Of a stretch of 64,000 nt of DNA, positions 15,449-18,471 are shown piece after piece. The position numbers and the translations under genes were made by a program. Source of the stretch: a virus. Its lineage: Duplodnaviria; Heunggongvirae; Uroviricota; Caudoviricetes. Where the stretch lies: IMG/VR virus record IMGVR_UViG_2925897562_000001, one strand, 5' to 3'. Each line of letters starts with the position of its first letter. Position 1 is the stretch's first letter. The notes under the pieces are model-generated. The model was not told the origin of the DNA, did no database searches, and was given only the letters and a program-made list of their open reading frames with translations.

Positions 15449-17860
15449 ATGAATGACGTTACAGTTGTTACATCGGTTACTTACCCATCACCCGAGTCGT
15501 TGGCTCTGGTGGCTGATGTGCAATACCACGAACCATATCTGTCAGCCGCTCTAAACCGAAAATTCAGGGGAATTGTTGACCCAGGATTTTATGCTGGTTT
15601 CTTGCCTAAGCCTGGCGGTGGAATGAACCTGTTAATCACCTCAGTGGATGGAGATAAAACCGCTGGCGCGGCGTCAGTGGATATTGGTGAATTCTACCAG
15701 GTAACTATTCAGCATCGTAAGGATATCTCTCTTGCACTTAACGCAGGCAAGAAATATGCAATTGTGCTGAAGGGAAGATACCTTCTTGGAGAAGATACCT
15801 ATCAGGTGAATACCGCGTCACATATTCATGCAGCTGAATTTGTTGCCAGAACCTATACCGATTCATATCAGTTAGGTGATGGGGAACTGCTGGTTTGTAC
15901 GGTGAATATCCCTGCTGGCGTATCTACCATTACTCAAGAGATGATTGATACATCCGAGCGTATCAACCGCACGATCGGCATTGATATTTCAGACTCTGTA
16001 ACCAGTACCAGAAGTGATGTTGCTGCGAGTTCGCTGGCAGTTAAAAAAGCCTACGATCTGGCGAAAAGCAAGTATACGGCGCAGGATGCAAGCACAACGC
16101 AAAAGGGATTAGTTCAGCTCAGTAGTGCCACTAACAGTACGTCTGAAGTGCTGGCCGCCACACCGAAAGCTGTCAAGGCTGCATATGACCTGGCTAACGG
16201 GAAGTATACAGCCCAGGATGCAACCACGACACAAAAAGGGATAGTTCAGCTCAGTAGCGACACCAACAGCACTTCTGAAACATTAGCTGCAACTCCAAAA
16301 GCGGTTAAAGCTGCATACGATCTAGCAGCCGGAAAGGCACCATCCAGTCATACACATCCCTGGAATCAGATCACTGGTGTGCCAACAGCTTCATTGACAG
16401 CGAAAGGCATCACTCAGCTCAGTAGTGCCACTAACAGTACGTCTGAAGTGCTGGCCGCCACACCGAAAGCTGTCAAGGCTGCATATGACCTGGCTAACGG
16501 GAAGTATACAGCCCAGGATGCAACCACGACACAAAAAGGGATAGTTCAGCTCAGTAGCGACACCAACAGCACTTCTGAAACATTAGCTGCAACTCCAAAA
16601 GCGGTTAAAGCTGCATACGATCTAGCAGCCGGAAAGGCACCATCCAGTCATACACATCCCTGGAATCAGATCACTGGTGTGCCAACAGCTTCATTGACAG
16701 CGAAAGGCATCACTCAGCTCAGTAGTGCCACTAACAGTACGTCTGAAGTGCTGGCCGCCACACCGAAAGCTGTCAAGGCTGCATATGACCTGGCTAACGG
16801 GAAGTATACAGCCCAGGATGCAACCACGGCTCAAAAAGGGATAGTCCAACTCAGCAGTGCTACCAATAGCACTTCTGAAACATTAGCTGCAACTCCAAAA
16901 GCGGTTAAAGCTGCATACGATCTAGCAGCCGGAAAGGCACCATCCAGTCATACACATCCCTGGAATCAGATCACTGGTGTGCCAACAGCTTCATTGACAG
17001 CGAAAGGCATCACTCAGCTCAGTAGTGCCACTAACAGTACGTCTGAAGTGCTGGCCGCCACACCGAAAGCTGTCAAGGCTGCATATGACCTGGCTAACGG
17101 GAAGTATACAGCCCAGGATGCAACCACGGCTCAAAAAGGGATAGTCCAACTCAGCAGTGCTACCAATAGCACGTCCGAAGTGCTGGCCGCCACACCGAAA
17201 GCTGTCAAGGCTGCATATGATTTGGCTAATGGAAAGCAAGCGGCAGACGCTACGCTCACTGCTCTAGCGGCACTAGCTACAGCAGCAGATAAACTCCCTT
17301 ATTTCACAGGTGTTGATCGTGCCGCGTTAACTGCATTGACAAGTGTTGGACGCGCCATTCTTGGTAAGACCAGTATTCAGAGCGTTCTTGATTACCTTGG
17401 TTTAGGAGAAGGCTCGGCGCTGCCCGTTGGTGTACCTGTTCCGTGGCCCTCAGCCACACCTCCAACGGGGTGGCTGAAATGCAATGGTGCAGCATTTTCT
17501 TCTGAAATGTACCCCAGGCTGGCAAAGGCTTATCCGACCAATAAATTACCGGATTTACGCGGTGAGTTTATCCGTGGTTGGGATGATGGGCGAGGTGTGG
17601 ATGCGGGAAGGGTCATCTTAAGCATACAGGGGTGGTTAACAGGAAGTCATTATCATAATATTCGGTCATGGGACGCGTGGGATAACACGGTATTGGTGCC
17701 AAATGACAGAGGGGGGGATAGTCTGTTGTCGACAGATAACGCCGTCCAAGAAGGAGCGATTAATGGTAAATTTACCAGTCAATACAGAACGGAGTTATCT
17801 GGGGGGAATGAAACCCGCCCACGTAACATTGCCTTCAATTATATTGTGAGAGCAGCATAA
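15449..17860 (+). CDS. S: tail fibre protein S (constant part Sc fused to the currently expressed variable cassette Sv0), 803 aa
   Basis: ATG at 15449 with AAGGA RBS; ~100-aa tandem repeats; C-terminal tail-collar motif LPDLRGEFIRGWDDGRG; HxH tip motif; crossover site inside the ORF. Confidence 0.9.
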   Translation: MNDVTVVTSVTYPSPESLALVADVQYHEPYLSAALNRKFRGIVDPGFYAGFLPKPGGGMNLLITSVDGDKTAGAASVDIGEFYQVTIQHRKDISLALNAGKKYAIVLKGRYLLGEDTYQVNTASHIHAAEFVARTYTDSYQLGDGELLVCTVNIPAGVSTITQEMIDTSERINRTIGIDISDSVTSTRSDVAASSLAVKKAYDLAKSKYTAQDASTTQKGLVQLSSATNSTSEVLAATPKAVKAAYDLANGKYTAQDATTTQKGIVQLSSDTNSTSETLAATPKAVKAAYDLAAGKAPSSHTHPWNQITGVPTASLTAKGITQLSSATNSTSEVLAATPKAVKAAYDLANGKYTAQDATTTQKGIVQLSSDTNSTSETLAATPKAVKAAYDLAAGKAPSSHTHPWNQITGVPTASLTAKGITQLSSATNSTSEVLAATPKAVKAAYDLANGKYTAQDATTAQKGIVQLSSATNSTSETLAATPKAVKAAYDLAAGKAPSSHTHPWNQITGVPTASLTAKGITQLSSATNSTSEVLAATPKAVKAAYDLANGKYTAQDATTAQKGIVQLSSATNSTSEVLAATPKAVKAAYDLANGKQAADATLTALAALATAADKLPYFTGVDRAALTALTSVGRAILGKTSIQSVLDYLGLGEGSALPVGVPVPWPSATPPTGWLKCNGAAFSSEMYPRLAKAYPTNKLPDLRGEFIRGWDDGRGVDAGRVILSIQGWLTGSHYHNIRSWDAWDNTVLVPNDRGGDSLLSTDNAVQEGAINGKFTSQYRTELSGGNETRPRNIAFNYIVRAA
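16080..17230 (+). repeat. in-frame tandem repeat, 300-bp period, about 3.7 copies, inside S
   Basis: Sequence lines 16141, 16441, 16741 and 17041 are identical; copies 1 and 2 identical over 300 bp, copies 3 and 4 differ at a few positions. Confidence 0.9.
17385..17410 (+). other. cixL-like invertase crossover site inside S (TTCTTGATTACC-TT-GGTTTAGGAGAA)
   Basis: 26-bp imperfect dyad with 2-bp core, similar to hix/gix/cix sites (hixL TTCTTGAAAACC-AA-GGTTTTTGATAA); at the Sc/Sv junction. Confidence 0.7.
17399..17860 (+). other. expressed variable cassette Sv0 (tail-collar domain plus tip, 153 aa)
   Basis: Begins immediately after the crossover dinucleotide; homologous to the 8 silent cassettes. 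Confidence 0.8.
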
Positions 17861-18471
17861 TGGATAATGCGATATTAAATAGCGAACTTATAGCCATACA
17901 GGCAGGAAACATTATCGTTTATAACTATGATGGTGGTAATCGGGAATATATTTCTGCATCAACTGAATATCTTGCTGTTGGCGTTGGTATTCCGGCAAAT
18001 TCTTGTTTGGATGCTCCAGGCTCACATAAAGCAGGTTATGCGATTCTCCGTTCAGAGGATTTAAGTTCATGGGAGTATGTGCCAGATCATCGTGGCGAAA
18101 CTGTCTATAGCATTGACACTGGGAATCCCGAAGAAATCACGGTGTTGGGTGACTATCCGGAAAATACAACCACTATCGCCCCGCTAACACCATACGACAA
18201 ATGGGATGGAGAGAAATGGGTGGTTGATACTGAGGCTCAACATAGTGCAGCTGTAGAGGCAGCAGAAACAAAACGTCAGTCATTGATTGATACTGCGATG
18301 GATTCCATTAGTCTGATTCAGTTGAAATTACGGGCTGGACGGAAGTTGACGCAGGCAGAAACCACGCAGCTTAACTCCGTGCTAGATTATATAGACGAGC
18401 TGAACGCGATGGATTTAACCACGGCACCAGATCTCAACTGGCCTGAAAAACAACTTTCTACAGCCAGTTGA
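17860..18471 (+). CDS. U: tail fibre assembly chaperone U (203 aa)
   Basis: ATG overlaps S stop; C-terminal region typical of Tfa/gpU-family chaperones. Confidence 0.85.
   Translation: MDNAILNSELIAIQAGNIIVYNYDGGNREYISASTEYLAVGVGIPANSCLDAPGSHKAGYAILRSEDLSSWEYVPDHRGETVYSIDTGNPEEITVLGDYPENTTTIAPLTPYDKWDGEKWVVDTEAQHSAAVEAAETKRQSLIDTAMDSISLIQLKLRAGRKLTQAETTQLNSVLDYIDELNAMDLTTAPDLNWPEKQLSTAS

Follow-up and report, generated by a model that had tools for sequence, protein, structure and literature searches.

A single tail-fiber chaperone gene inside a nine-tip inversion array of a P1-like phage-plasmid

How might one assembly chaperone serve nine alternative tail-fiber tips when its gene lies within the DNA whose inversion exchanges those tips? 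The question is raised by a locus in a 64,000-nucleotide stretch of viral DNA (IMG/VR record IMGVR_UViG_2925897562_000001; the whole stretch is called the window below), which is part of a P1-like phage-plasmid of Escherichia coli. In this locus the constant 5' part (Sc) of the tail-fiber gene S can be joined to one of nine alternative 3' ends, and a single chaperone gene, U, follows the 3' end that is now fused to S. The invertible segments of phages P1 and Mu, unlike that of the window, encode two tips and a separate chaperone for each (Sv-U and Sv'-U'; P1 record annotation and PMC13172314), as an earlier note on this DNA had pointed out. That note had gone on to propose that the nine tips fold without a dedicated chaperone, that U is transcribed independently, or that the availability of U itself phase-varies. 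We add a possibility that is absent from these three, a generic chaperone that acts on conserved parts of all tips. The reading that we tentatively prefer combines such a chaperone with an orientation-dependent supply of U, in a multiple-inversion system of the Min type.

The chaperone gene and the tip cassettes

The array is made up of the following features, by position in the window.

15449-17860, + strand: tail-fiber gene S, with Phage_fiber_2 repeats and a Collar domain; R and the 5' part of S (first 1.1 kb) 97% identical to R-Sc of P1 and P7
17385-17410, + strand: crossover site 0, the only + strand site, at the junction of Sc and tip, central TT at 17397-17398; same site type as the EC958 Phi2 5' site (PMC4134206 Table 3)
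17399-17860, + strand: expressed tip t3, 153 amino acids (aa); Pfam Collar domain (E 7e-15), HxH core, C-terminal NIAFNYIVRAA
17860-18471, + strand: U, tail-fiber assembly chaperone, 203 aa; PF02413 Caudo_TAP (E 3.1e-30, residues 78-197), PHROG 105 'tail fiber assembly' (E 1e-92)
18477-18977, - strand: silent tip t2, 166 aa, convergent with U; crossover center 18978-18979
18985-19416, - strand: silent tip t7, 143 aa; crossover center 19417-19418
19424-19903, - strand: silent tip t1, 159 aa; crossover center 19904-19905
19911-20375, - strand: silent tip t8, 154 aa; crossover center 20376-20377
20383-20889, - strand: silent tip t4, 168 aa; crossover center 20890-20891
20897-21403, - strand: silent tip t0, 168 aa; crossover center 21404-21405
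21411-21881, - strand: silent tip t5, 156 aa; crossover center 21882-21883
21889-22323, - strand: silent tip t12, 144 aa; crossover center 22324-22325, the right end of the invertible DNA
22392-22964, + strand: Din-family serine DNA invertase, Min/Pin/Cin-like, 190 aa; PF00239 Resolvase (E 2e-51), HTH_7 PF02796 (E 3.5e-15)

Two characters place U in the Tfa family: the match of its C-terminal domain to Caudo_TAP, and its position directly downstream of a tail-fiber gene, which is the same in 100 or more related loci. The ATG of U overlaps the stop codon of S (TAATG). A sequence search of the PDB with U returned no match. The earlier note had allowed for a second chaperone gene that was missed. 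We searched the entire 64-kb window by tblastn with 12 diverse Tfa/U proteins, including U and U' of P1, and found no second gene of this family; the sole other match had 28% identity (E 0.003). The cassettes fill the array with 10-nucleotide spacers, so there is no room in it for a further gene. The count of one U for nine cassettes was thus borne out, with one Caudo_TAP-family gene in the window and nine intact cassettes.

All nine cassettes (143-168 aa) are intact and in frame from the crossover point to the stop codon. Two short open reading frames (18985-19269 and 20383-20673) were considered as frameshifted cassettes and rejected as such; these cassettes are intact when read from the crossover site and merely have no upstream start codon. 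Compared in pairs, the nine have a mean identity of 91.6% in their first 72 aa, 25.8% in the central core (55-80 aa) and 87% in their last 16 aa. A Phage Tail Collar domain forms the N-terminal part, and the C-terminal part ends …RPRNIAFNYIVRAA. These conserved ends align to the collar and the extreme C-terminus of the T4 gp37 tip (PDB 2XGF), and the whole cassette aligns to 9CUY, a short tail fiber; t3 is homologous to both. By these alignments, the cassettes are best described as miniature gp37-type tips, with a common scaffold and a variable middle that would bind the receptor. Five of the nine cores have an HxH motif (SHYHN in t3, DHAHG in t2, KHRHI in t1, DHAHY in t0 and SHSHY in t12) resembling the metal-binding motifs of T4 gp37 and gp12, and four are without one, which points to tips of two structural classes on a shared scaffold.

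A search pattern derived from cassette 5' ends found exactly nine crossover sites in the window, compared to 0.05 expected by chance. Each site is 26 bp long, with imperfect 12-bp half-sites in inverted orientation around a 2-bp core (TT), and the sites match those of EC958 Phi2 and the consensus. The + strand has one, within S; the other eight, on the - strand, each lie where a cassette has its 5' end. The invertible DNA extends from 17398 to 22324 (4.9 kb); Sc ends at the crossover at 17397/98 and is fused to t3 in this isomer, and U lies between site 0 and site 1. We found no extra crossover site that would let U flip alone, and no site parts U from t3 or from t2. The 52-nucleotide inverted repeats that flank U were considered as invertase sites and rejected, being the conserved 3' ends of cassettes. 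Assignment of the recombinase to the Din family follows from its length of about 190 aa, its resolvase domain and C-terminal helix-turn-helix, the architecture of the sites, and the natural isomers described below.

Among the plasmid records of PLSDB, 115 contain U, with 117 copies in total, i.e., one U per array. Arrays without an intact U were also seen. The Escherichia albertii plasmid pEA40_1 (loci L017/L046/L047) is complete, P1-like and carries an eight-cassette array, with no Tfa-family gene anywhere in the plasmid; the expected position of U looks deleted or decayed. In L022, U is present as a broken remnant. In view of this decay and breakage, we do not take these arrays as proof that U is dispensable.

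Orientation of U in natural isomers and in a model of inversion

Related loci came from public assemblies (NCBI/ENA), searched for exact copies of U, R and the invertase, and from a scan of IMG/VR with U; in every locus we then placed Sc, U, the invertase and the families of cassettes on a map. The tally of orientations leaves out plasmid matches that were picked by similarity to this isomer. U was antisense to S in 5 of the 13 NCBI/ENA assemblies (found through U, R or invertase) and in 7 of the 16 IMG/VR arrays among the matches listed. Pooled, and with the IMG/VR share limited in the same way, U was antisense in 12 of 29 arrays (41%). There are natural isomers with U on the strand opposite S, and therefore U flips, as expected of a gene that had been placed inside the invertible segment. 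Inversion does occur: the array exists as many natural isomers, all consistent with inversion between the nine sites.

In the isomers with U antisense, S was intact and fused to t2 (three cases), t0 or t4, and U was located tail-to-tail just downstream of S or one cassette beyond. In other isomers (L001, L002, L004, L034, L042 and others), U was in the sense orientation but distal, with 1-5 sense-oriented silent cassettes between S and U. In every mapped multi-cassette array (for IMG/VR, among the matches listed), t3 was immediately upstream of U. Downstream of U there was almost always a convergent t2, or t1 in a second lineage in which U is ~83% identical. Duplicated cassettes, a second invertase with extra cassettes, or two mirror-image copies of U were observed in L001, L023 and L061. 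These may be assembly artifacts of mixed isomers, of the kind that the EC958 paper warns about (PMC4134206).

We modeled the array as one double-headed segment (t3 -> U -> <- t2) with seven further segments of one cassette each, let only sites in opposite orientation recombine, and listed every state that could be reached. The nine-site model has 8! x 2 = 80,640 isomers, and U is on the strand of S in exactly half of them; a six-site model has 240. When t3 is expressed U is always in the sense orientation, when t2 is expressed it never is, and the other seven tips are divided 50:50. All natural maps fit the rule from the model that single cassettes are on the + strand to the left of the U segment and on the - strand to its right. 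The earlier note had held that any inversion that installs a silent cassette also turns U antisense. This is correct for a single step from the isomer in the window, but it fails in general because later internal inversions turn the t3-U-t2 segment back, both in the model and in natural examples.

Tip specificity and expression of U

Outside such arrays, the same cores also occur as tips of ordinary fiber genes. ​In other phages, cores t26, t8 and a t4-like core are directly followed by full-length proteins that are 78%, 67% and 57% identical to U, respectively. The IMG/VR matches listed include 57 further loci (L070-L126) of a two-chaperone type, most of them arranged 'tipX> U> <Tfa' and most with a visible invertase. 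Among these, U proteins 77-82% identical to that of the window follow at least 15 core families, including t0, t1, t2, t4 and t5; in L078, L085 and L089, t2 is followed by its own U-family gene. U proteins that are at least 98% identical were found after unrelated cores, one with the HxH motif and one without. The Tfa protein of phage lambda can replace T4 gp38 in the assembly of gp37, and by analogy this provides a precedent for a chaperone that is not tip-specific. Since the same cores precede U-family chaperones elsewhere, near-identical U proteins follow unrelated cores, plasmid records have one U each, and lambda Tfa sets this precedent, we think that U most likely is a generic chaperone whose targets are the conserved collar and C-terminal scaffold common to all tips, and therefore that one copy can suffice. 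In the Tfa of phage Mu, a variable N-terminal domain binds the fiber tip and a conserved C-terminal domain drives trimerization (summarized in PMC9608196), and by comparison with Mu some tip specificity of U may exist.

Transcription of U was assessed from the following features, listed with the genes and promoters that flank the array.

14954-14972, + strand: late promoter LPs, upstream of R-S; AAGTTACTT-N4-TACAAT, an exact match to the annotated LPs of P1
15003-15437, + strand: gene R, P1 tail-fiber R protein, 144 aa; PHROG 2032 (E 1e-84), PF26881 in gene tables
23096-23272, - strand: truncated cin-like pseudo-invertase, 83-90% identical to the 5' region of P1 cin, with an in-frame stop
23691: late promoter LPdar

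LPs is the only recognizable promoter for the fiber operon and the only late promoter facing the array. The P1 late-promoter pattern had no match in 17399-22400, even with relaxed criteria, and a scan for sigma-70 promoters upstream of U gave none with 9/12 or more matches (best 8/12), such scans being insensitive. As candidates for a promoter of U's own, the products of the late-promoter, sigma-70 and relaxed scans were not convincing. A TATATT hexamer is located 15 nucleotides upstream of the U start codon. We also rejected a leftward promoter from the side of the invertase. In both lineages of single-U arrays, the leftward strand of the 71-bp spacer between the rightmost site and the start of the invertase (22330-22391 part) lacks a TANNNT hexamer, and the cin-type promoters are degenerate: copies of P1cin and P2cin just upstream of the pseudo-invertase (about 23300-23383; region to 23405) point toward the array and are mutated at key -10 positions (-10 = TAAAAC). 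The spacer at the invertase is of two distinct types: modules and arrays with a single U have one, and two-chaperone modules have the other. We found no terminator-like sites on the sense strand of the cassettes, so read-through from LPs to a distal, sense-oriented U is plausible.

Judged from this arrangement, U would be co-transcribed with S only when it is on the strand of S, and late transcription from LPs would run head-on through an antisense U. Of the three proposals in the earlier note, phase-varying availability of U is thus the default prediction from the sequence. Independent transcription of U drew no support from the late-promoter and sigma-70 scans, although promoter prediction is insensitive, and folding of the tips without a dedicated chaperone is disfavored, since the same cores directly precede U-family chaperones in other phages.

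The Din-family serine invertase recombines nine 26-bp sites, one in S and one at the 5' end of each cassette, and under the reading that we tentatively prefer U would provide one generic chaperone for all nine tips. With no promoter of its own, U would be made only when on the strand of S, either beside S or distally by read-through from LPs across sense-oriented silent cassettes. In the other half of the isomers, including all that express t2, U would be antisense, and fiber assembly would be impaired or would rely on chaperone that is made at a low level or supplied in trans. We regard it as possible, but somewhat doubtful, that the supply of chaperone is itself phase-variable (off in half of the 80,640 isomers and always with t2), or that there is hidden, orientation-independent expression of a gene within invertible DNA. 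If supply does vary, a population of lysogens would release a mixture of fiber-competent and fiber-deficient (or differently assembled) virions, and a second on/off layer would be superimposed on the choice of tip.

Several observations weigh against this reading. Although t2 never shares its orientation with U, nearly all arrays contain it, and the cassette is intact. The chromosomal P2-like prophages L006, L009 and L012 have minimal modules of two tips and an invertase (t3 -> U -> <- t2), and the persistence of t2, including in these modules, suggests that t2 is usable when U is antisense. Mean identity of U was 92% between loci sharing a tip core and 84% between loci with different cores, which could reflect some co-adaptation rather than linkage alone. 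Collar-type cassettes are present in 148 plasmid records of PLSDB, and approximately 30 of these had no megablast match to U; the gap between the 148 records with cassettes and the 115 with U may be due in part to diverged variants of U. In addition, the insensitivity of the promoter scans means that U may have an independent promoter, and these collar-type tips might do without U. The paradox of t2 must have one of three solutions: an antisense U is expressed by a route that the scans miss, folding of t2 needs no U or draws on a chaperone provided in trans, or isomers that express t2 are non-productive. In L006, L009 and L012, the sequence of U is identical to that in the window; the invertase is 190 aa long in L006 and L009, as in the window, and a 196-aa variant is found in L012. 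The whole inversion module appears to move between unrelated types of phage.

We weighed three other explanations against the combination of generic chaperone and orientation-dependent supply. It seems unlikely, though less so than the other two, that a generic U is expressed in both orientations from a promoter that the scans did not recognize, located in t3, at cassette junctions, or leftward near the invertase; alternatively, low-level transcription in the antisense state might be enough for a chaperone that acts catalytically. All 80,640 isomers would then make working fibers. That t2 and the minimal t3-U-t2 module have persisted and spread argues for a t2 that works with U antisense, and the 71-bp spacer type particular to single-U modules, unlike that of two-chaperone modules, and the TATATT hexamer 15 nucleotides upstream of U are compatible with such a promoter. 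However, the scans found neither a late-promoter box nor a sigma-70 site with 9/12 or more matches, the spacer lacks a leftward TANNNT, the promoters at the pseudo-invertase are mutated at key -10 positions, and transcription from LPs would collide head-on through an antisense U.

Slightly less likely again is that U is needed only by t3, or is a mere helper or adhesin for t3, with the other tips folding unaided or with a Tfa from the host or a co-resident prophage. The constant position of U immediately downstream of t3 in multi-cassette arrays and the overlap of their stop and start codons fit this explanation, as do T4 gp12, which also has a collar domain and is generally understood to use no chaperone of the gp38/Tfa type, and the complete plasmid pEA40_1, which has the array and no Tfa gene anywhere. 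A supply in trans is conceivable in that U-family genes are abundant in E. coli prophages, with at least 598 stretches (598 of the 600 matches listed) encoding a relative. However, in other phages each of the cores t0, t1, t2, t4, t5 and t8 has a U-family chaperone directly after it, U proteins that are nearly identical are found behind unrelated cores, the array of pEA40_1 looks decayed where U is expected, and Tfa-family chaperones are known to be essential for the related fibers of T4 (gp38 or lambda Tfa), lambda, P2 and Mu (PMC9608196). It is very improbable that most silent cassettes are non-functional baggage, with only t3 and U mattering and the array persisting by hitch-hiking. Fiber function is not under selection in prophage-state isomers, and cassettes are duplicated or decayed in some assemblies (L001, L017, L022); against this, all nine cassettes in the window are intact, S occurs naturally in in-frame fusions with t0, t2, t4 and further tips, and the same cores are the sole tip of other phages.

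Related systems, genomic setting and implications

The locus is a nine-site version, in a P1-like phage-plasmid, of the Min multiple-inversion system of p15B. Min-type features found here are more than two sites, several 3' ends for one 5' part, a P1-like operon and an adjacent pseudo-invertase. The Min system of p15B likewise has more than two sites that fuse alternative 3' ends to one 5' part. The system was reportedly described by Sandmeier, Iida, Arber and co-workers in 1990-1992, with six sites and cassettes and 240 isomers, compared to nine and 80,640 in the window; the six-site model above, with its one double-headed segment, arrives at the same 240. Its size is reported to be 3.5 kb, which fits six cassettes and one U, and p15B reportedly has a truncated second invertase beside the active one; the pseudo-invertase in the window presumably corresponds to the psi-min described for p15B. 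Because 3.5 kb fits six cassettes plus one U and 240 isomers require exactly one double-headed segment, a single chaperone is very probably present in p15B as well. Both have a P1-like backbone with late promoter, R and constant Sc, and the P1 record notes 96% identity to p15B.

The C segment of P1 (with Cin) and the G segment of Mu (with Gin) share with the window a Din-family invertase, 26-bp sites, a switch of the S C-terminus and a chaperone inside the invertible segment. The rule in those segments, a second, opposite chaperone paired with each alternative tip, does not hold in the window, and the tips there are of a non-collar type. The P1 cin gene faces its segment, whereas the invertase in the window is transcribed away from the array. 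The two-allele invertible tail-fiber segments of E. coli prophages, such as EC958 Phi2, are like the window in having collar-domain tips and a U-family chaperone after the collar tip, and EC958 Phi2 has the same site type (…ATTACC TT GGTTTAGGAGAA and …AAACG TT GGTTTGGGGGAA; PMC4134206). In EC958 Phi2, inversion was seen directly in PacBio reads (PMC4134206). In those segments two tips form a mirror-image pair and the second tip has another chaperone ('tipX> U> <Tfa'), whereas in the window there are eight extra tips and a second chaperone is missing. T4 (gp37/gp38) and lambda (Stf/Tfa) are related through their fiber tips: the tips in the window align to the gp37 collar and share the C-terminal NIAFNYIVR, and U belongs to the family of lambda Tfa. 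Unlike the window, T4 and lambda have no inversion, one fiber and one chaperone each, and a much longer needle. The R64 shufflon (Rci) also combines multiple inversions, many cassettes and alternative C-termini for one constant gene, but its recombinase is a tyrosine recombinase, its variable product is the PilV pilus adhesin, and it has no chaperone gene.

The region from 15000 to 23000, used as an 8-kb query, matched 585 plasmid records, of which 518 are from Escherichia and most are non-mobilizable; matching records that were retrieved are ~90-110 kb each. Gene R, which lies outside the invertible DNA, and the 5' part of S (together the first 1.1 kb of the query) are 96-97% identical to P1, P7, SJ46 and RCS47. 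Sc contains four tandem 300-bp repeats (16114-17313), two of them identical, that encode the Phage_fiber_2 repeats. The length of S ranges from ~500 to 830 aa across otherwise near-identical plasmids, presumably by gain or loss of repeats. The invertase gene has 69% nucleotide identity to P1 cin, and the region that matches the annotated P1 cin enhancer, a candidate Fis-dependent recombinational enhancer in the 5' part of the gene, is conserved, with 89% mean column identity over the first 110 nucleotides (a consensus-based figure for two sequences). The pseudo-invertase covers the initial ~177 bp of the gene; it is oriented toward the array, so that it and the active invertase converge. Farther downstream, a gene for a 402-aa IS605-family TnpB/OrfB protein (27419-28627, - strand) is present in some related plasmids and not in others; it lies downstream of darA (25098-27017) and a 121-aa open reading frame, and upstream of a 995-aa ddrB-ParB gene.

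In E. coli, P1-like phage-plasmids are common; they disseminate resistance genes and serve as delivery vectors. The comparison of t3, with which U is always co-oriented, and t2, with which it never is, provides a clean test case for a strict need of Tfa-family chaperones. If one chaperone serves all collar-type tips, then tips could be swapped in engineered P1, P2 or lambda particles with no need to pair each one with a cognate chaperone. If the supply of chaperone depends on orientation, then about half of the isomers of such arrays would yield defective particles, which would alter the way in which one assembled isomer is used to predict host range and transduction potential.

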